The notes below the pieces were generated by a model. The model saw only the letters and a list, made by a program, of their open reading frames with translations, ran no database searches and was not told the DNA's origin. Shown here in pieces: positions 3,312 to 34,384 of a DNA stretch of 39,307 bases. A program made the position numbers and the translations under genes. The stretch lies in the NCBI GenBank assembly GCA_902784095.1, contig CACZTK010000042.1:1-39307 (forward strand), given 5' to 3'. The first letter of the stretch is position 1. Each line of letters opens with the position of its first letter. This stretch comes from an uncultured Erysipelotrichaceae bacterium (lineage in GTDB: Bacteria > Bacillota_I > Bacilli_A > RF39 > UBA660).

Positions 3312-4055
3312 ATGGAACAAGAAAGAGTAGAAAAAAAGAAAGGCACAAATGGTAAAATTGTTGCATTAGCATTAGCATTAGTATTATTAATTGGAGGAAC
3401 ATACGCATGGTTGACTTTAAGTTTTAACGGAACTAAAAGAGTTAGAATTGAATCTGGACACTTAGCAATGGCTATTAAAGGTGAGTCAGATGGAATCAAT
3501 ATTAATCCAGCAGTACCAATAACAGAAAATGAAGGAAAGACACAAAATACTAAATATGAATTTACACTAGAAAATACAGGTAATATTTCGAGTGTATATA
3601 CAGTTTATTTAGATGATGTTGCTTTCAATGCGGAAACAGAATTTGCAATTGATAAGGGATATATCGGATATTTCTTAGAAAAAACTATTTATAATGGATC
3701 ATGTGATGACTCAGGTGTATGTACACCAACAGGCGATGCAGTGTCAACAACTACAAGAACAGGTAATATTGGTGAATTAATTAGCGGATCATATGTTGTA
3801 TTAGATACAAGTTCAGATTCTACAGCTTTAGGTGCAGATCAATATATTGAATACACTTTAAGACTATGGATTCGTGATACAGCTGGAACTAATGATTTAC
3901 AAAAAGTTGAAAATAATGTAACTAAATCTGGTGTATACTCTGCTAAAATTGGTGTAAAAGCTACTCAAATTGGTATCGAAGCTGATGATGCTTATGGTGA
4001 AACAACTACAAGAGAAGATACTTGGGTAAGACCAGAACCACCAGTTACTCCATAA
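3312..4055 (+). CDS. Secreted TasA/camelysin-like protein with SipW-type signal peptide (paralogue 1 of 4)
   Basis: N-terminus is a K-rich stretch, then a hydrophobic helix ending GGTYAWLT, then SGHLAMAIKGE (compare TasA GGGTWAAFND...SGTLDLSAKEN). It has an internal YEFTLENTGN..YTVYLDD and YTLRLWIRD, and a near-C-terminal SAKIGVKATQ (compare TasA ...FSFEATQ). These blocks are shared with ORFs 31880, 32552 and 33776. RBS AGGTAGGTGA. Confidence 0.6.
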   Translation: MEQERVEKKKGTNGKIVALALALVLLIGGTYAWLTLSFNGTKRVRIESGHLAMAIKGESDGININPAVPITENEGKTQNTKYEFTLENTGNISSVYTVYLDDVAFNAETEFAIDKGYIGYFLEKTIYNGSCDDSGVCTPTGDAVSTTTRTGNIGELISGSYVVLDTSSDSTALGADQYIEYTLRLWIRDTAGTNDLQKVENNVTKSGVYSAKIGVKATQIGIEADDAYGETTTREDTWVRPEPPVTP

Positions 4056-4067
4056 TATATAGATTAT

Positions 4068-4097
4068 AAAGCAAGATTTTATCTTGCTTTTTTATTT
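4068..4097 (+). terminator. Rho-independent terminator
   Basis: AAAGCAAGAT / ATCTTGCTTT stem with a TTT loop, followed by a T-run. Confidence 0.8.
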
Positions 4098-4119
4098 TGT
4101 ATATGATATTATTAGTTTG

Positions 4120-4324
4120 TAAAAACGAAGATTAAGGACACGATTAAATTAGTATCTTTTGAAGAGAGTTCATGGTTGGTGAGAATGAATAAAGAATAGT
4201 TTAGTTACTACCTTATTAGTTGAATTATTAAAAGTAATTCCGGTTTAGGCCGTTATCTAAATTAAGTTAAATACTGGATGGTATCGTGTTTAAACACTCC
4301 AATTATGGGGTGTTTTTTATTTTA
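4120..4324 (+). promoter_or_regulatory. T-box leader (threonine specifier) controlling thrS
   Basis: AGAGAG (4163-4168) and GGTGAGA (4178-4184) stem-I motifs. ACT-ACC Thr codons at 4207-4212 in the likely specifier region. F-box-like CCGTTA (4250-4255). T-box sequence CTGGATGGTATCGTG (4274-4288). Terminator AACACTCC/GGGGTGTT plus T-run (4293-4324) lies directly before the thrS RBS. Confidence 0.85.
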
Positions 4325-22341: not shown

Positions 22342-23148
22342 ATGATTGATGATAATAGGTTTTATACCTGTAGAAATGATAGAGCGTTTAAAGAAGTTTT
22401 TATGAATGAAAAGAATAAAGATATATTAAAAGTATTACTTGAAAGTATTTTAAAAGTGGAAATAAGAGAAATAAAATATTTAAACTTAGAAAAGAATGTA
22501 GATAATATTAATATTAGAAGAAAACATTTTGACCTACACCTAGATACTAATATTGGAAAGATTCAAGTAGAAGTAAATGCCAAATTAGAAGACTATACAA
22601 GAAGTAGAAATACCGCATTTATTTGTGATACCTATTCTCATGAGGTATTAAAAGGAGAGGATTATTCAGAAGATAGTTTAATAGTTCAAATAAATTTTAC
22701 TTATGGATTAGGAAAGAAAGAAAAAGATTTAAGAATATATAAGATACAAGATGAAGAAGGAATTTTATATATAAGAAACTTCATAATATATGAATTTAAT
22801 ATGGATTATTATAAAGAAATATGGTATTCTAAAGACAAGAAAAAGATAGAAGAATCTAAATATTTAATTATGCAAGATTTAGATAAAAAAGAATTAGAGA
22901 TTCTATCTAAAAAGGATAAGGTGATAACAAAGTATATGGAAGAATTAGAAAGAGTAAATGAAGATCCAAAGTTTAGAGAATTTGTATCAGCAGAACAAGA
23001 CAATAAGATGATAGAAAATACCATAAAAAAATATGCAAGAAGAGAAGAAAAAAGAGAGATAGCAAAATCACTTTTACAAAAAGAAATTAATATTAATATT
23101 ATATCTGAGTGCACTGGATTGTCTTTAGAAGAAATTAATGAATTATAA
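22342..23148 (+). CDS. Rpn-family PD-(D/E)XK recombination-promoting nuclease / putative transposase
   Basis: Characteristic N-terminus NDRAFKEVFMNEKNKDILKVLLESIL and a nuclease core FDLHLDT...IQVEVNAK. RBS AAAGGAG. No terminal inverted repeats were seen around it. Confidence 0.75.
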   Translation: MIDDNRFYTCRNDRAFKEVFMNEKNKDILKVLLESILKVEIREIKYLNLEKNVDNINIRRKHFDLHLDTNIGKIQVEVNAKLEDYTRSRNTAFICDTYSHEVLKGEDYSEDSLIVQINFTYGLGKKEKDLRIYKIQDEEGILYIRNFIIYEFNMDYYKEIWYSKDKKKIEESKYLIMQDLDKKELEILSKKDKVITKYMEELERVNEDPKFREFVSAEQDNKMIENTIKKYARREEKREIAKSLLQKEININIISECTGLSLEEINEL

Positions 23149-24247: not shown

Positions 24248-25231
24248 ATGGCAATTATAGAGGTAAAAAAATTATCAAAACAGTTTAGTGTAAAACTAAA
24301 AGAAAAGGGATTAAAAGGAAGTTTTAAATCATTAATAAAACCTAAGTATAAAAAAATTAAAGCAGTTAGTAATGTATCATTTTCTGTAGAAAAAGGAGAA
24401 ATGATTGCTTTCATTGGACCTAATGGAGCAGGAAAATCTACAACTATTAAGATGCTTACAGGAATACTATATCCAGATAAAGGTGATATTAAAGTATTAG
24501 GATATGATCCTAGAATAGATAGAAAAAAGCTAGCATATGAAATAGGAACAGTATTTGGACAAAAAGAACAATTATGGACTCATTTAACTCCATATGATAA
24601 TTTTAAATTCTTTGGAGCAATCTATGATATACCAGAGAAGGTAGTAGAAAAAAAGATTGAAGAATTAAGAGAATTATTTGAACTAGATGACTTTATAACG
24701 ACACCAGTTCGTAATTTAAGTTTAGGACAAAGAATTCGTTGTGAGATAGTAGCAAGCTTAATTCATGAACCAAAAATACTATTTTTAGATGAACCAACCA
24801 TCGGACTTGATCCTGTAGTTAAGGAAAATATTAGAACACTAATTAAAAGAATGAATAAAGAGTATAAAACAACGATATTCTTAACCAGTCATGATGTATC
24901 TGATATTGAAAAACTATGTAAAAGAGTAATTATTATTAATGATGGTAAATTAGTATTAGATGATTCTATGGAAAACTTAAAATATCATTACTTAAATAAA
25001 AAAATTGTTGAAGCTAAAATGAAAGAACAAGTTAATTTAGATGATGAAGACGGAATTACTATTTTAAAAGATAAAGGATATAATTTAAAACTAGAAGTAG
25101 ATACAAAGAAAAAATCAATAGCTGATGCTTTAAAACTGTTAAATCCAGATAATATTGTAGACATAAATATATCTAATACTCCACTAGAAGATATTATTAG
25201 TAATATCTATAAAAAAGGTGATAAGAAATGA
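24248..25231 (+). CDS. ABC transporter ATP-binding protein (ABC-2 exporter type)
   Basis: Walker A GPNGAGKST, Q-loop, signature LSLGQR, Walker B ILFLDEPTIGLD, H-loop SHD. ATG 24248 has AGGAGG 7 nt upstream. Confidence 0.9.
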   Translation: MAIIEVKKLSKQFSVKLKEKGLKGSFKSLIKPKYKKIKAVSNVSFSVEKGEMIAFIGPNGAGKSTTIKMLTGILYPDKGDIKVLGYDPRIDRKKLAYEIGTVFGQKEQLWTHLTPYDNFKFFGAIYDIPEKVVEKKIEELRELFELDDFITTPVRNLSLGQRIRCEIVASLIHEPKILFLDEPTIGLDPVVKENIRTLIKRMNKEYKTTIFLTSHDVSDIEKLCKRVIIINDGKLVLDDSMENLKYHYLNKKIVEAKMKEQVNLDDEDGITILKDKGYNLKLEVDTKKKSIADALKLLNPDNIVDINISNTPLEDIISNIYKKGDKK

Positions 25232-26019
25232 AAAAGTATTTATTCATCTACAAAACAGAAATAATGAGTAATATTAGCTATGCATTTAATTTAATTACAG
25301 GTTTTGTTGGCTATTTTATTCATATCTTTATATTTTTAAATTTATGGAAATATATTTATAGTAATCCTAAAGAACTTATTAATGGCTATTCTATGAACCA
25401 AATGGTATGGTATGTAATAGTCACTGAAATATTATGGATGTGTATTGGAGGAAGAAAACTTTGTAAACAAATAATAAGTGATGTACGTACTGGTAATGTT
25501 GCCTATAACATCAATAGACCATATAGTTATATTTTGTATCAATTATTTAGTAATTTAGGAAGATTTACAGTTAAGTTTGTTTTATTCACAATACTTGGTG
25601 TAGTAATGGGATTAGTATTTTTACAAGAATTTCCTAATATATCTGTTTTAGGTATTATATTGGTATTACTTTCAAGTTTTCTAGCAACTATAATTAATAC
25701 GTTATTTGTTATAGTTATTGGATTGTTTTCATTTTTTATAGAGGATTCTAATCCATTTTATTGGGTATATTCAAAGTTTATTTTAGTAGTTGGTACATTA
25801 TTTCCAATAGAATATTTTCCAAAAGTAATTCAACCAGTTATTAAAGCTAGTCCAATTTTTGCAGTTAGTTATGCACCTGCTAAAATGTTTGTAGATTTTA
25901 ATATTAATAATGTATTTTATATATTATTAGTTCAATTAGTATATGTTGTTATTTCATATACATTATGTTTATTTATATATAGAAAGGGAGTGAAAAATAT
26001 CAATGTTAATGGCGGTTAA
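25228..26019 (+). CDS. ABC-2 family transporter permease
   Basis: About six hydrophobic helices. ATGA start/stop overlap with the ATPase gene. Confidence 0.8.
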   Translation: MKKYLFIYKTEIMSNISYAFNLITGFVGYFIHIFIFLNLWKYIYSNPKELINGYSMNQMVWYVIVTEILWMCIGGRKLCKQIISDVRTGNVAYNINRPYSYILYQLFSNLGRFTVKFVLFTILGVVMGLVFLQEFPNISVLGIILVLLSSFLATIINTLFVIVIGLFSFFIEDSNPFYWVYSKFILVVGTLFPIEYFPKVIQPVIKASPIFAVSYAPAKMFVDFNINNVFYILLVQLVYVVISYTLCLFIYRKGVKNINVNGG

Positions 26020-26797
26020 AAATCAGATTAAGATTTCTTTATTATCTATTAAATATGCATGTATTAGGGAAATGCTTAATAAAACAACATTCATTACTAA
26101 TGTAATTTTTATGATTTTAAATAATGCTTCTTTTATAATTCAGTGGGTTATACTATATTCATTAAGAGAGAATGTTGGAGGTTATTCATTTAAACAAGTT
26201 ATGTTTTTGTGGGCACTAGCAGCATCAACTTATGGTATTTCTCATTTCTTATTTAAGAATGCTTATACATTATCAGATACTATTAATAATGGAAAACTTG
26301 ATTCTTATCTAGTTCAACCGAAGAATGTATTATTATCTGCAATAACATCTGATGTAGAAGTATCAGCATTAGGAGACTTAATTTATGCATATGTAGTTTT
26401 AATTATTTGTGAATGTACAATTAAATCATTTTTACTGTTTACATTTTTTTCAATAATTGGAGGACTTGTTTTAACTTCTTTAGCAATCATTTTTGCATCT
26501 TTAAGTTTCTGGTTTCAAAAATCAGATGCAATTGTAGATACAGCTAATGGTTTAATGACAAACTTTGCAACATATCCAGATGGTATATTTAAGGGTGCAG
26601 TTAAATTTATTTTATATACTATGGTTCCTGTTGGATTCGTAAATTATATTCCAATTTCATTGATAAAAAGTTTTAACATAGAGTTTTTTGCATTAGCACT
26701 TATATTTGATATAACAATAATAGTATTTGCATTTGTAATTTTCTATAGTGGATTAAAAAAGTATTCATCAAGTAACTTGATGATAGCCAAAATATAA
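26003..26797 (+). CDS. ABC-2 family transporter permease (second subunit)
   Basis: About six hydrophobic helices. It overlaps the preceding permease gene by 17 nt. Confidence 0.8.
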   Translation: MLMAVKNQIKISLLSIKYACIREMLNKTTFITNVIFMILNNASFIIQWVILYSLRENVGGYSFKQVMFLWALAASTYGISHFLFKNAYTLSDTINNGKLDSYLVQPKNVLLSAITSDVEVSALGDLIYAYVVLIICECTIKSFLLFTFFSIIGGLVLTSLAIIFASLSFWFQKSDAIVDTANGLMTNFATYPDGIFKGAVKFILYTMVPVGFVNYIPISLIKSFNIEFFALALIFDITIIVFAFVIFYSGLKKYSSSNLMIAKI

Positions 26798-26811: not shown

Positions 26812-27405
26812 ATGGCTAGTTTAATGATAGTAACAGGACCACAAGCAGTAGGTAAAATGACAGTTGCAGAACAAATAAGAGATAAAACTAATTTTCATCT
26901 TATGGTAAACCATGACAGTATTGAAATATCTAATAAAATATTTGGTCGTGGTAGTGATGCTCAAAAAAAGTTTAATCAATTATTTAGAGAAGCAGCATTT
27001 AAAACAGCAATAGAGAATAATGTAGATTTAATCTTTACATTTGTAACAGCATTTGATTTAGAAGAAGAAATAGCTTATCTTAATAGTTTAAAAGATATGT
27101 TTGAATCTACAGGAGGTAATTTCTATTTTGTAGAGTTAGAAGCAGATATAGAAACAAGACTTGAAAGAAATGTTACTCCACATAGATTAGAATCAAAAGA
27201 AAGTAAAAAAGATATAGAATGGACTAAAAATGATATTCTAAAAACTGCTTTAAAATATCAATTAAATTCAGATAAACAATTATTTGAAAATCATCTAAAA
27301 ATAAATAATACTAATTTAGAACCAGATGAAGTAGCAGAACAAGTTATAAATAAATTTAATTTAGAGAGGTCTCAAAATGATAGGAGTAATAGTAGCGTCA
27401 AATAA
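26812..27405 (+). CDS. P-loop kinase-like protein (AAA_33 / small-molecule phosphotransferase-like)
   Basis: N-terminal Walker A VTGPQAVGKMT, about 195 aa, size and layout of small nucleoside/antibiotic kinases. RBS AAGGAGAG, 14 nt after the permease stop. Confidence 0.55.
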   Translation: MASLMIVTGPQAVGKMTVAEQIRDKTNFHLMVNHDSIEISNKIFGRGSDAQKKFNQLFREAAFKTAIENNVDLIFTFVTAFDLEEEIAYLNSLKDMFESTGGNFYFVELEADIETRLERNVTPHRLESKESKKDIEWTKNDILKTALKYQLNSDKQLFENHLKINNTNLEPDEVAEQVINKFNLERSQNDRSNSSVK

Positions 27406-31879: not shown

Positions 31880-32455
31880 ATGTTATTGTATCAATTAAAA
31901 GTTAGAAAAAAAGAAATATTTGTAATTACATTTATCTTAGCTTTTGCGTTAATCGCAACTAATAGAATATATTATAAATTTAAGGATTCAAATAATGTAG
32001 ATTATAATACAGCAACTATAGATACTACATTTCATGAAAAAACAGGAGCAGAAGTAAATATTACAAAGGTTACTCCAATGACAGATTCATTAGGTCTTTC
32101 ATCACGTGCATACACATTTACTATTAAGAATAATACTAATGCAAGTTTAAAGTATTCTATTTCAATTGAAGATAATGAATTAAAAGTAGATGAAGATAGT
32201 TGTGAAAGTATGCAAATACCACATAATCTTATTAGATTTGCTATACATCAAAAAGGTGAGAAGAATAATATTTATACACTTAGTGATTTAGTTAATGGAG
32301 AAGTATTAACTAGAATAATAAAAGCAAATCAACAAGAAGAGTATACTATGAGATTTTGGGTTGCAAAAGATTCCATGCTTACAGGAACAAAATTACATTA
32401 TCATGGTATTATCAAGGTTAATGATTTAGGTAATCAAGTAGCAATTATTAGTTAA
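31880..32455 (+). CDS. Divergent membrane-anchored/secreted member of the TasA-like family (paralogue 2 of 4)
   Basis: N-terminal hydrophobic helix without the GTYAWL motif. It shares YTFTIKNNTNASLKYSISIEDNE, LIRFAIHQKGEKNN and YTMRFWVAKDS blocks with the 3312/32552/33776 proteins. RBS AGAGGTG. Confidence 0.55.
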   Translation: MLLYQLKVRKKEIFVITFILAFALIATNRIYYKFKDSNNVDYNTATIDTTFHEKTGAEVNITKVTPMTDSLGLSSRAYTFTIKNNTNASLKYSISIEDNELKVDEDSCESMQIPHNLIRFAIHQKGEKNNIYTLSDLVNGEVLTRIIKANQQEEYTMRFWVAKDSMLTGTKLHYHGIIKVNDLGNQVAIIS

Positions 32456-32551: not shown

Positions 32552-33619
32552 ATGGAAAATAAAAATGAAGAAATAATAGATAAACAAACTGAAAATGAAA
32601 CAATGACAAATAGCCAAGAAGTTAACAATCAACAAAAACCAGAAGTATATGAAAAGAAACGTAATAAATATGCTTTTGTAGTAGCTTTTGCACTAGTAGC
32701 TATATTATTAATTACAGGAACATATGCTTGGTTAAGAATAGGATTAAATGGAACAAAAACAAATATAATAAAAGCAGGCTTGTTGGATTTAAGGATAGAT
32801 GAGACTCCAACTTCAGAAGAAGTAATACGTATAGAGCGTGCAATACCACAAAGTTATAGACAAGGAATAACAAATCCACCATATAGATTTACTTTAATAA
32901 ATAATTCTAGTGTGGATACAGATTATACAATTAGTCTAGAAGATTTATATGAAGGTGCTGATGCATCATTAACAGCAAATGATAAAATAGCAGATAATTT
33001 AATAAGATATATTTTAGTAAAAAATGATGATGAGATGATCGCAAGTAATTCAAAATTACTATCAACAGGAAGAACAATAGACACTGGAACAATTTCTGGA
33101 AAGAGTGGAAATACACCAACAGAGATACCATATACATTATATATATGGATAGATTCAAAAGCAGGCGACAATGCAACAGAAGCAGATATTATGAGTAAGA
33201 TATTTAATGCAAGACTTAATATAACTGCAGAACAACATCATGAAACAACGCCAGCACAAGTAGGATTCCAACCAACATACTTTGCATTTGGAGATGTAAC
33301 AACAGCATCCCCAACAACAGCACCAGCAGGTAAAAATGTATACGCAGCATTAGATAGTCAGGGAAATAAAGGAGTATGTATAAATAGAAGTGGAACAGTA
33401 CATTGTTTCCAAACAAATAATGTAGCATATGAACAACAACATGTACAACAAGTATTTAACCAACAATGTGAATATCTTTCCGAGTACAGCTGCTGGATCT
33501 GCAATGCGGGTCTTTTCGGCTGCGCTGTGGGTTCGAATGGCGACGTGAGTTGCAACGATCGCGGTCCGAACGAGTACTGCGCTGTGAGTCCGGATGGCTC
33601 AGTGAATTGTGGCCAGTAG
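32552..33619 (+). CDS. TasA/camelysin-like secreted protein with a 125-aa Cys-rich C-terminal extension (paralogue 3 of 4)
   Basis: Acidic/polar N-tail, then KKRNKYAFVVAFALVAILLITGTYAWL (SipW-type signal), AGLLDLRIDE, YRFTLINNS..YTISLEDL, YTLYIWIDS and FNARLNITAEQ. The extension (33242-33616) has 9 Cys and three C-x-[VN]-x3-G-x-V-x-C hairpin repeats. RBS AGGAGA. Confidence 0.7.
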   Translation: MENKNEEIIDKQTENETMTNSQEVNNQQKPEVYEKKRNKYAFVVAFALVAILLITGTYAWLRIGLNGTKTNIIKAGLLDLRIDETPTSEEVIRIERAIPQSYRQGITNPPYRFTLINNSSVDTDYTISLEDLYEGADASLTANDKIADNLIRYILVKNDDEMIASNSKLLSTGRTIDTGTISGKSGNTPTEIPYTLYIWIDSKAGDNATEADIMSKIFNARLNITAEQHHETTPAQVGFQPTYFAFGDVTTASPTTAPAGKNVYAALDSQGNKGVCINRSGTVHCFQTNNVAYEQQHVQQVFNQQCEYLSEYSCWICNAGLFGCAVGSNGDVSCNDRGPNEYCAVSPDGSVNCGQ

Positions 33620-33640
33620 CTTCGCGCCTTGTCTAAGATC
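33478..33640 (+). other. Abrupt high-GC / foreign codon-usage patch covering the last ~46 codons and 3' flank of the 32552 gene
   Basis: Hand count gives 72 G+C in 33481-33600 (60%) versus 36 in 33361-33480 (30%). The patch uses GCG, CCG, TCG, CGC, GGC and GTG codons that are almost absent elsewhere in the window. Confidence 0.85.
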
Positions 33641-33648
33641 TAGGATCA

Positions 33649-33672
33649 ATCTTTGCAAAAGCAAAGGTTTTA
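33649..33672 (+). terminator. Small terminator-like hairpin
   Basis: ATCTTTGC / GCAAAGGT stem with an AAAA loop, followed by TTTTAT. Confidence 0.5.
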
Positions 33673-33690: not shown

Positions 33691-33722
33691 ATTCGAGAAA
33701 TATAAATGTTTCTCGAATTTCT
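33691..33722 (+). terminator. Second hairpin (terminator or operator) between the tandem paralogues
   Basis: Perfect 10-bp inverted repeat ATTCGAGAAA / TTTCTCGAAT with an 8-nt loop, followed by TTCTATT. Confidence 0.45.
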
Positions 33723-33752: not shown

Positions 33753-33775
33753 CTAGTTAAGATAGGATGATTAAT

Positions 33776-34384
33776 ATGGATAATTTAAGTGAAAAACAAA
33801 AAAATAGATATGCATTTATAGTTGCTATTATATTTATAATTATATTATTAATGACAGGAACAGTTTCTTGGTTAATAATAAAAGCTAATTCAAATAAGGT
33901 AAATGCAATTAAGGCAGGAGCATTAGATCTAAGAGTAGATGAATCTCCAACACAAGATGGTGATATACATATAGAACGTGCTATACCACAAAGTTATAGA
34001 CAAGGAATAACTAATAAACCATATAAGTTTACACTTATAAATAATTCAACAATTCCAACAAGTTATACAATCACTTTAGAAGATTTATATGAAGGTATTG
34101 ATGCTACTTTAACTGATAATGATAAAATTTCAGATAGTTTAATAAGATATATCTTAGTAAAAAATGATGATGAGATGATTGCAACAAATTCAAAATTATT
34201 ATCAACAGGAAGAATAATAGATTCTGGAACGATAGCAGGTAAAACAGGTAATCAATCAGTACAAATACCTTATACATTATATGTTTGGATAGACTCTCAT
34301 GCTGGAGATAATGCAACCGAGACTGATATCATGAGCAAAATATTTAATGCAAGACTAAAAATAAATGCAGAACAATATCATTAG
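33776..34384 (+). CDS. TasA/camelysin-like secreted protein (paralogue 4 of 4, short form)
   Basis: KQKNRYAFIVAIIFIIILLMTGTVSWL signal, AGALDLRVDE, YKFTLINNS..YTITLEDL, YTLYVWIDS, and FNARLKINAEQYH followed by stop. About 77% identical (122 of 158 by hand alignment) to the core of the 32552 protein. ATG 33776 was chosen because the leader AAGATAGGA-N8-ATG aligns with that of 32552. Confidence 0.7.
   Translation: MDNLSEKQKNRYAFIVAIIFIIILLMTGTVSWLIIKANSNKVNAIKAGALDLRVDESPTQDGDIHIERAIPQSYRQGITNKPYKFTLINNSTIPTSYTITLEDLYEGIDATLTDNDKISDSLIRYILVKNDDEMIATNSKLLSTGRIIDSGTIAGKTGNQSVQIPYTLYVWIDSHAGDNATETDIMSKIFNARLKINAEQYH

Follow-up and report, generated by a model that had tools for sequence, protein, structure and literature searches.

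We analyzed a contig of 39,307 nt from an uncultured Erysipelotrichaceae bacterium (assembly GCA_902784095.1, contig CACZTK010000042.1), referred to over its full length as the window, and focused on a gene for a small secreted protein whose 3' end is GC-rich. This end very probably represents the variable region (VR) of a target gene of a diversity-generating retroelement (DGR). Such elements are built around a template repeat (TR), from which a transcript is made; a reverse transcriptase (RT) and the protein Avd copy the transcript into cDNA with random bases opposite the template adenines, and the cDNA replaces the VR. The features at the locus are as follows.

32552–33619, forward strand: target gene, an open reading frame (ORF) of 355 aa with a membrane or signal helix at residues 37–65, a TasA/camelysin-like beta-sandwich domain and a C-terminal Cys-hairpin module.
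33377–33406, forward strand: first Cys-bracketed hairpin, CINRSGTVHC, in native AT-rich codons outside the VR (sequence and translation).
33478–33637, forward strand: predicted VR, comprising the last 46 codons, the TAG stop codon and a 3' tail homologous to the ends of related TRs.
33620–33633, forward strand: GC-rich post-stop tail CTTCGCGCCTTGTC, at the position of the initiation of mutagenic homing (IMH) element (sequence).
33648–33669, forward strand: hairpin or cruciform AATCTTTGC-AAAA-GCAAAGGTT with a stem of 7–9 bp and a 4-nt loop (inverted repeat, DNA fold).
33691–33718, forward strand: second hairpin with 13-bp arms and a 2-nt loop (inverted repeat, fold), which is not conserved in relatives and shows no homology to the related locus L026.

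The window has an overall G+C content of 26.7%, with a mean of 26.8% (sd 5.2%) in 120-nt intervals. A single 120-nt stretch in the entire 39,307 nt exceeds 45% G+C; it begins at 33479 and reaches a peak of 60%. A two-change-point likelihood fit placed the patch at 33480–33628, with 59.7% G+C compared with 30% in the flanks. A preliminary description of this DNA had reported, by hand count, a sharp jump from 30% to 60%, and the exact recount returned 36 of 120 nt for 33361–33480 and 72 of 120 nt for 33481–33600; the junction is as sharp as described, with the fitted change point at 33480 and the jump at the VR start, 33478. Within 33479–33616, GC3 is 0.67, compared with 0.115 in 12,132 background codons, only one of the 46 codons ends in A, and the geometric mean of the synonymous-codon fraction is 0.107, compared with a background minimum of 0.307 (1,047 stretches of 46 codons). 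The patch composition is thus confirmed to lie far outside chance. The seven codons GCG, CCG, TCG, CGC, GGC, GTG and CAG, described earlier as essentially unused elsewhere, are indeed rare, but they do occur (18, 3, 12, 4, 21, 28 and 22 times, respectively, in the 12,132 background codons). The other structural details of that description hold: the frame stays open across the patch over the whole ORF (32552–33619, 355 aa), the GC-rich sequence continues for 14–20 nt beyond the TAG stop (CTTCGCGCCTTGTC at 33620–33633), both hairpins follow at 33648–33669 and 33691–33718, and of the three copies of the Cys...Cys hairpin motif, the patch holds two (GCAVGSNGDVSC, YCAVSPDGSVNC), while native codons encode the other (GVCINRSGTVHC, Cys codons at 33377 and 33404). 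A repeat search around the locus revealed an internal 33-nt duplication of this hairpin motif as the sole repeat.

Next to these features, comparison with TRs of related loci (numbered with the prefix L, related proteins with P) argues for a DGR. Homology of the window VR to the TRs of L026 and L036 begins with TT(C/T)CGA at 33478, at the G+C jump, and ends near TCTAA(G/A) in the post-stop tail. For an adenine-column test, 111 nt of the window VR were aligned with four related TRs, and columns with adenine in at least three of the four were counted as A columns. The window VR departs from adenine at 18 of the 35 A columns, whereas a base absent from all TRs is found at 4 of the 71 non-A columns (Fisher p = 1.5e-7). 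The related TRs encode units of the form C-N-V-N-S-N-G-N-V-N-C, in which the Asn codons AAC/AAT alternate with fixed Val, Ser and Gly; their adenines occupy positions 1 and 2 of AAY codons with few elsewhere, and the window carries NNY codons at these sites. AAC-rich TRs with adenines at codon positions 1 and 2 are known from other DGRs (PMC5758913). Across 90 family representatives, the Asn-templated positions show an entropy of 3.37 bits compared with 1.68 bits elsewhere (p = 2e-6). Of the 13 differences between the window VR and its L026 copy, 8 fall on codon position 1, compared with 1 of 12 in the native-codon part. Position and extent of 33478–33637, at the 3' end of a coding gene, also agree with the roughly 100–150 nt that a VR spans. 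Altogether, the link between the window and a DGR is based on the position and boundaries of the VR, the adenine-column test and the near-identical cassette in L026. Adenine-specific TR/VR mismatches, an AAY-rich TR, a 3' VR, a GC-rich tail and a hairpin with a 4-nt loop constitute the defining DGR anatomy (PMC3240598, PMC5758913).

The sequence behind the stop codon follows the same layout, in which a VR at the 3' end of the gene is followed by a GC-rich IMH and, 4–34 bp downstream, by a hairpin with a 4-nt loop (PMC3240598). The tail CTTCGCGCCTTGTC is identical in the second VR of L026 (VR2), while relatives carry TTCGCCCCGAG at the same site; in L023, TTCGCCCCGAG is exactly common to TR and VR. 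The window hairpin starts 14 nt after the GC-rich tail and 10 nt after the last VR base (33637), and a hairpin occupies the same position in eight related loci, with the loops GAAA, GATA, GTAA, GTGA, GTTA and AAA. The canonical hairpin has a GC-rich stem of 7–10 bp and a 4-nt GRNA loop (PMC3240598); spacing, stem length and loop length of the window hairpin fit this description, while its stem is AT-rich and its loop is AAAA. The second hairpin at 33691–33718 is probably the transcription terminator of the target gene. In relatives, a conserved element lies behind the VR hairpin, in which another short hairpin precedes the sequence GAAT(A/G)GTGCCGAACG...GTGTAGGCAC (L021 1070–1110, L023 4980–5020, both VRs of L026, L028 2920–2960 and L031 3745–3790). 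It occurs even where no TR follows, namely after the first VR of L026 (VR1), and it is absent from the window, which has the hairpin at 33691–33718 in its place. Rfam scans of L021, L023 and L026 gave no match at this element, the sole match being an S15 leader.

Complete or partial DGR cassettes were found in relatives of the target gene. Homologues of the whole protein also possess the C-terminal Cys-hairpin domain. Their DNA was retrieved in L020, L021 and L023/L024, which belong to other assemblies; the loci have 26–28% G+C (38% in L021, a contig of 1.3 kb), while the last 150 nt of the gene have 49–57%. In each case, the GC-rich sequence continues past the stop, with a conserved short tail and then a hairpin behind it. 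On four relatives' contigs, a second, Asn-codon-rich copy lies 200–400 nt 3' of the patch. For example, the second copy in L023 is located 365 nt downstream, its translation is an Asn-rich peptide, and 22 of the 24 differences over 162 nt fall on adenines of the downstream copy (Fisher p = 2e-11). Similarly, 19 of 22 TR/VR mismatches in L028 are at TR adenines (p = 5e-10), a single TR in L029 matches two VRs with 22 of 24 and 23 of 25 mismatches at adenines, and in L021, where the start of a TR precedes the contig end, every mismatch is at a TR adenine. L026 carries two tandem targets.

The order in L028 is target, VR, hairpin, TR, Avd and RT (N-terminus of the reverse transcriptase); L029 and L036 have the order TR, Avd, RT, and the TR of L029 serves two target genes. 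Avd (PF22296 bAvd; NF033474) was found in L028, L029, L030, L034 and L036; the matches in L028, to bAvd (E = 1.7e-9) and to NF033474 DivGenRetAVD (E = 6.5e-10), are both below the curated cut-offs. The reconstructed RTs match RVT_1 with E = 2e-16 and 1e-14. Their best match among solved structures is 8ub7, a reverse transcriptase of 328 aa (E = 1.5e-16), which we take to be the Bordetella enzyme, the search output giving only the entry name.

Not all cassettes are equally well preserved. In L031/L032, a decayed cassette, the RT is a stub of 139 aa, the mismatches are divided into 21 at adenines and 20 at other positions, and VR and TR have 45% and 40% G+C. L031 and L032 come from different samples of the GAIO21-1 study and share 2,100 nt without a single difference, VR and TR included; no diversification is seen between samples of this truncated-RT lineage. 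The syntenic orthologue L022 lacks the patch and encodes the same domain at 33% G+C. In VR G+C content these loci form a decay series of 60% (window), 45% (L031/L032) and 33% (L022), with the window at the fresh end. A different situation is found in L023 (with L027, ENA ERZ1461851 contig-81_34), where the TR/VR pair is near-perfect, with two non-adenine mismatches, Avd is a stub of 60–64 aa and no RT was called within 10 kb either side of the TR; this leaves an RT encoded elsewhere and acting in trans, or a very recent loss.

The RT genes of this clade were compared in L029 (3885–5027), L036 (937–2057) and L034 (435–1500) and in the proteins P0121–P0168. In a protein collection of 5.8 billion clusters, all of them end at or before 234 aa, compared with about 375 aa expected. 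The breaks lie in a stretch of about 45 nt that codes for KG-x-x-IG-(N/D)-QTSQ-x-FGLIYL, immediately ahead of the YMDD box, and differ among contigs: L029 and L030 have an in-frame TAA replacing a Gln codon, L034 and L036 have each lost 1 nt, though not at the same site, and further frameshifts are present in other proteins. Downstream of the break, the frame of L029 and L036 is open for about 140 codons with YMDD intact, and the short fragment P0168 reads through the break region. These breaks could be due to repeated pseudogenisation, a mutational hotspot, or an on/off or recoding control. A programmed frameshift at one conserved slippery site was considered but is not supported, as the lesions differ among L029, L034 and L036.

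According to the proposed mechanism, the TR transcript would be copied by RT and Avd into a cDNA with random bases opposite adenines, which would replace the 3' VR of the target gene, guided by the GC-rich tail (IMH) and the nearby DNA hairpin. One face of each Cys hairpin would be randomised through alternate AAY codons, with the framework of Cys, Val, Ser and Gly remaining fixed. On this reading, the G+C jump has two causes. First, the TR is rich in G and C at every non-adenine position (46–48% G+C, in genomes of 26–29%), with adenine avoided outside AAY codons and nearly excluded from third positions, and with G or C favoured over T at the remaining positions. Second, A-to-N mutagenesis replaces roughly every other adenine, in most cases by G or C, for a gain of about ten points that leads to VRs of 53–61%. 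A cognate template is predicted to match the window VR except for A at each variable position (for example TTCAACTGCAAYGTGAAYTCGAATGGCAACGTGAAYTGCAACGATAAC) and to have a tail like CTTCGCGCC. The composition of the complete cassettes is as follows: TRs have 46–48%, VRs 53–61%, avd and RT 17–24% and the loci 28–29% G+C. Since avd and RT directly beside the TRs have only 17–24% G+C, the GC excess is a property of the repeat and not of an imported island.

Several observations weigh against assigning the window patch to a DGR. No TR was found in the 39-kb window when both strands were scanned without gaps for copies of the 163-nt patch, counting identities either alone or together with mismatches at adenines (best 64 of 163 nt). 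Pfam scans of 20 window ORFs showed neither RT nor Avd, nor did the Pfam marks of the genes from 27377 onward, the ORFs 25228–26019, 26003–26797 and 26812–27405 being outside this coverage. The collections searched contained no exact cognate TR, and those of L026 and L036 differ from the window VR at several non-adenine positions. A strict N-masked pattern (GAGTAC fixed, which proved too strict) had no match in genome or viral contigs, relaxed patterns led to L025, L026 and L028 and not to a cognate TR, and TR peptides gave nothing above threshold in the protein database. No VR variation is seen among the four contigs with the identical window protein. The hairpin of the window has an AAAA loop and a T-G mismatch in its stem, while the related loops begin with G except in L023 (AAA); loop sequence matters in the Bordetella phage system (PMC3240598). 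Finally, every RT gene recovered for the clade is interrupted.

As no TR was found in the window, nor an Avd or RT among its scanned ORFs, its VR would be either a remote target or an orphan. Distances of more than 100 kb between the RT and a remote target have been described for DGRs (PMC5758913). We infer that the window VR was written by a cassette at another site of this genome. Continuing rewriting and a recent loss that left the VR as an orphan have about even chances. The mechanism as such is established, and on the target side the window sequence appears to show all testable DGR features except an exact cognate template and a GC-rich stem with GRNA loop.

The strongest rival is closely related: the patch may be a fossil VR, written by a DGR whose TR and RT no longer function here, and frozen before drifting to the AT-rich composition of its host. 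We consider this a serious possibility that falls somewhat short of an even chance. It would be consistent with the missing TR, with the lack of RT and Avd among the scanned ORFs and with the identical protein on four contigs. Furthermore, the AAAA loop and the T-G stem mismatch are unique among the nine loci compared, the window lacks the relatives' conserved post-hairpin element, all recovered RT genes of the clade are interrupted or truncated, and L031/L032 show that clearly decayed cassettes exist. However, with 60% G+C the window VR is as GC-rich as VRs beside near-perfect TRs, compared with 45% in the decayed example; the frame is intact with the framework Cys, Val and Gly all retained; remote targets are well documented (PMC5758913); and the window–L026 differences are biased to codon position 1, as expected of adenine mutagenesis after divergence.

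The preliminary description had explained the patch by replacement of the gene's 3' end with homologous sequence from a high-GC source, or by a recoded or engineered segment. Overwriting by a homologue is retained in the DGR interpretation, but an origin in a GC-rich organism or by engineering is very unlikely. The sharp junction, the preserved frame and the host-foreign codons would be compatible with it. However, equally GC-rich patches with the same motif, which had been named as the test of foreign origin, occur at the same site in homologues on other contigs of 26–29% G+C (L020, L021, L023/L024, L025, L026, L028 and L029), with a GC-rich template copy on the same contig where the context is known; such patches and template copies in low-GC relatives also speak against recoding or engineering. 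In addition, avd and RT beside the templates are themselves low in G+C (17–24%), the motif patterns matched low-GC contigs only and neither a GC-rich genome nor a viral contig, and across all 179 family clusters the module is found, almost always, at the extreme C-terminus.

Still less probable is that the composition was forced by the peptide, which is rich in Gly, Cys, Val and Ser in the patch, or by selection on mRNA structure: the same motif is written in AT-rich codons 100 nt upstream (33377–33406), L022 encodes the whole homologous domain at 33% G+C, the excess is at synonymous sites (GC3 of 0.67 versus 0.115), and the GC-rich stretch extends into non-coding sequence after the stop. An assembly chimera of two organisms' reads, conceivable for a contig whose MEGAHIT-style record name marks it as short-read metagenome assembly, has a negligible chance, because the identical 355-aa protein is present on four contigs, the independent contig L026 from another project covers both junctions with the same structure at 90–95% identity, and the same architecture recurs in ENA, NCBI and Logan assemblies, in agreement with the earlier argument against misassembly.

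As a next aspect, we considered the genomic surroundings of the target gene, for which the following features are relevant.

33262–33670, forward strand: candidate portable C-terminal cassette, comprising the native part of the module, the VR, the homing tail and the hairpin, common to an unrelated gene in L026.
31880–32455, forward strand: gene (ORF) upstream of the target, 191 aa, without VR, with sub-threshold Ig-like and BACON beta-sandwich Pfam matches.
33767–34384, forward strand: gene (ORF) downstream of the target, without VR, related to P0012 (73% identity over 55% of the query).

The cassette of about 410 nt is about 93% identical between the window and L026 and has sharp boundaries, the downstream one right behind the hairpin. 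Compared with a 288-aa gene of L026, identity is 94.5% for 33262–33478, 90.6% for 33479–33616, 93% for 33617–33645 and 88% for 33646–33670, and falls to about 50% at once on either side of 33262–33670. The partner gene (OEFW01005034.1, minus strand, 4178..3312) has an N-terminal domain and a downstream flank unrelated to those of the window. This cassette, shared by genes with unrelated N-termini and flanks, suggests that the whole target unit may move between genes. In the window, a PD-(D/E)XK (PDDEXK_2) transposase-like gene is located at 22342–23148, and a similar-looking gene, judged from its translation only, adjoins the tandem targets of L026 (5998–6957, minus strand).

The target is the middle one of three adjacent small secreted-protein genes (31880–32455, 32552–33619 and 33767–34384) between femAB and ftsA, and the only one of them with the C-terminal module and VR; the end of the third gene (…AEQYH) corresponds to the exact start point of the module in the middle gene (…AEQHHETT…). 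Other neighbours in the window are housekeeping and cell-envelope genes (GalE, FemAB, FtsA, FtsZ, FtsK). The identical 355-aa protein is found on four contigs, and its 90%-identity cluster consists of a single member. The threonyl-tRNA synthetase encoded in the window has at most 84% identity to those of uncultured gut metagenome-assembled genomes (MAGs) labelled Bacilli, Tenericutes or Erysipelotrichaceae, and 74% to Clostridium sp. CAG:433. Several of its nearest relatives are filed as 'Muribaculaceae' (contigs L037, L042 and L049), and L028 (JAGKUT010000090.1), with about 29% G+C and a complete low-GC DGR cassette, is filed as an 'Actinomycetes bacterium' MAG; such implausible labels on low-GC contigs are probably binning or labelling errors. 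Upstream of its target, L028 carries a gene (778–2199) whose N-terminal methylation motif is like that of type IV pilins (PF07963, E = 1.5e-5), which hints that some targets of this DGR lineage are located in pilus or competence-like surface loci. Viral contigs had no match to any of three motif patterns and thus gave no sign of a phage-borne DGR lineage.

The diversified scaffold was further characterised by structure prediction. The AF2 model of the whole target protein has a pLDDT of 79, and that of the C-terminal 129 aa a pLDDT of 91 and a pTM of 0.83, with stacked beta-hairpins and one helix. The diversified scaffold is predicted to consist of three Cys-bracketed beta-hairpins with alternating variable residues. 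In Foldseek searches of PDB and BFVD, the C-terminal module had no match at E <= 1e-3 and none to a lectin; its profile, searched against PDB sequences, also returned nothing, and hhalign of the module against DUF6273 returned a probability of 0.1%. The VR domain shows no recognisable C-type lectin or FGE-like fold, and by every test run the module appears to lie outside the C-type lectin class, though a very divergent lectin variant is conceivable. The module is rare: out of 1.84 billion representatives, 179 clusters at 50% identity contain it, in proteins of 86–1,717 aa.

The carrier domain is less distinctive. The window protein itself has no Pfam or NCBIfam match and stays below the gathering threshold of TasA/camelysin (PF12389), so that the name refers to a resemblance only, while the homologue P0022 matches Peptidase_M73 (PF12389) at its N-terminus with 29 bits against a cut-off of 22.5 (residues 14–78). 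Foldseek of the beta-sandwich domain produced only weak pilin-like matches. In P0050, the same N-terminal domain is fused to DUF6273 in place of the Cys-hairpin module, which indicates that the same carrier domain can bear different variable tips.

We tentatively propose a broader interpretation, which as a whole we regard as possible but far from secure. A DGR lineage in small-genome gut Bacilli of about 27% G+C would diversify an undescribed Cys-hairpin array on TasA/camelysin-like and other secreted proteins. Its target unit would be a mobile cassette of about 400 nt ending at the homing hairpin, its TR would be held at 46–48% G+C by selection, and the expression of its RT might depend on recoding or be switched on and off. 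As the TR would thus stand at 46–48% and the rest of the cassette at 17–24% G+C, orphan VRs would appear as isolated GC islands. Scaffold, carrier proteins, host lineage and GC-island signature appear to be undescribed in the literature searched, with the Ig1, Ig2 and UVR alignments of Wu et al. lying outside this comparison; in particular, the literature search found no paper joining TasA and DGRs.

No prokaryotic system other than DGRs is known to rewrite a protein surface on demand. Nearly all characterised VRs are found in C-type lectin folds (PMC8144416, PMC5758913). If true, a second scaffold without structural relation to these folds would extend the range of protein architectures known to tolerate massive variation, and the Cys-hairpin module, being small, disulfide-stapled and equipped with alternating variable residues, could be an attractive minimal display scaffold. 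For AT-rich genomes, a simple rule might be formulated: a 3' GC island of 150 nt with almost no third-position A, in a secreted-protein gene and followed by a hairpin, would point to a DGR target. This rule would work even with RT and TR on another contig, and RT-centred DGR finders would miss such orphans. Moreover, the fresh-to-decayed series (VRs of 60%, 45% and 33% G+C) could offer a way of dating the loss of DGR activity.

Compared with known systems, the N-terminus of the window protein resembles the signal-anchor and first-strand region (AWLRI...KAGxLDL) of the TasA/camelysin (Peptidase_M73) fibre proteins of Bacillota, although it scores below every Pfam and NCBIfam threshold; a signal-peptidase-I-like gene, judged by inspection of its translation, lies near the targets of L026. 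With the DUF6273/C-type-lectin targets of gut phages ('tentaclins', PMC10743442) the locus shares hypermutated residues on a beta-hairpin. The tentaclins have one such hairpin on a lectin body, whereas the module described here would present three hairpins, each bracketed by Cys and variable at every second residue.

Chromosomal DGRs with remote targets are represented by Treponema denticola, with TvpA and seven scattered targets, and by Lineage 4 of Wu et al. (PMC5758913). As in Treponema-type DGRs, the VR gene can be located far from RT and TR and among housekeeping genes (PMC5758913), and paralogous targets are served by one TR (two VRs per TR in L029, two tandem targets in L026). In contrast to the FGE-type C-type lectin lipoproteins of Treponema, the targets here are TasA/camelysin-like or other secreted proteins ending in the Cys-hairpin module. 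A further difference is seen in L023, where the TR adjoins its target, yet Avd is a stub and no RT lies within 10 kb.

The DGR of Bordetella phage BPP-1 (mtd VR, IMH, hairpin, TR, avd, brt) differs from the window in that the host here is not a phage but an uncultured gut member of the Bacilli with 27% G+C. Moreover, the window stem is AT-rich instead of GC-rich, with a loop of AAAA instead of GRNA, the VR stands alone in the window, and the diversified domain has no recognisable C-type lectin fold. Apart from these differences, the locus follows the same plan: the VR covers about the last 45–50 codons of the target (PMC3240598, PMC5758913), homology to the template continues past the stop into a GC-rich tail, a hairpin with a 4-nt loop follows a few bases downstream, and relatives of the gene are accompanied by TR, Avd and RT, with TR/VR mismatches specific to adenines.

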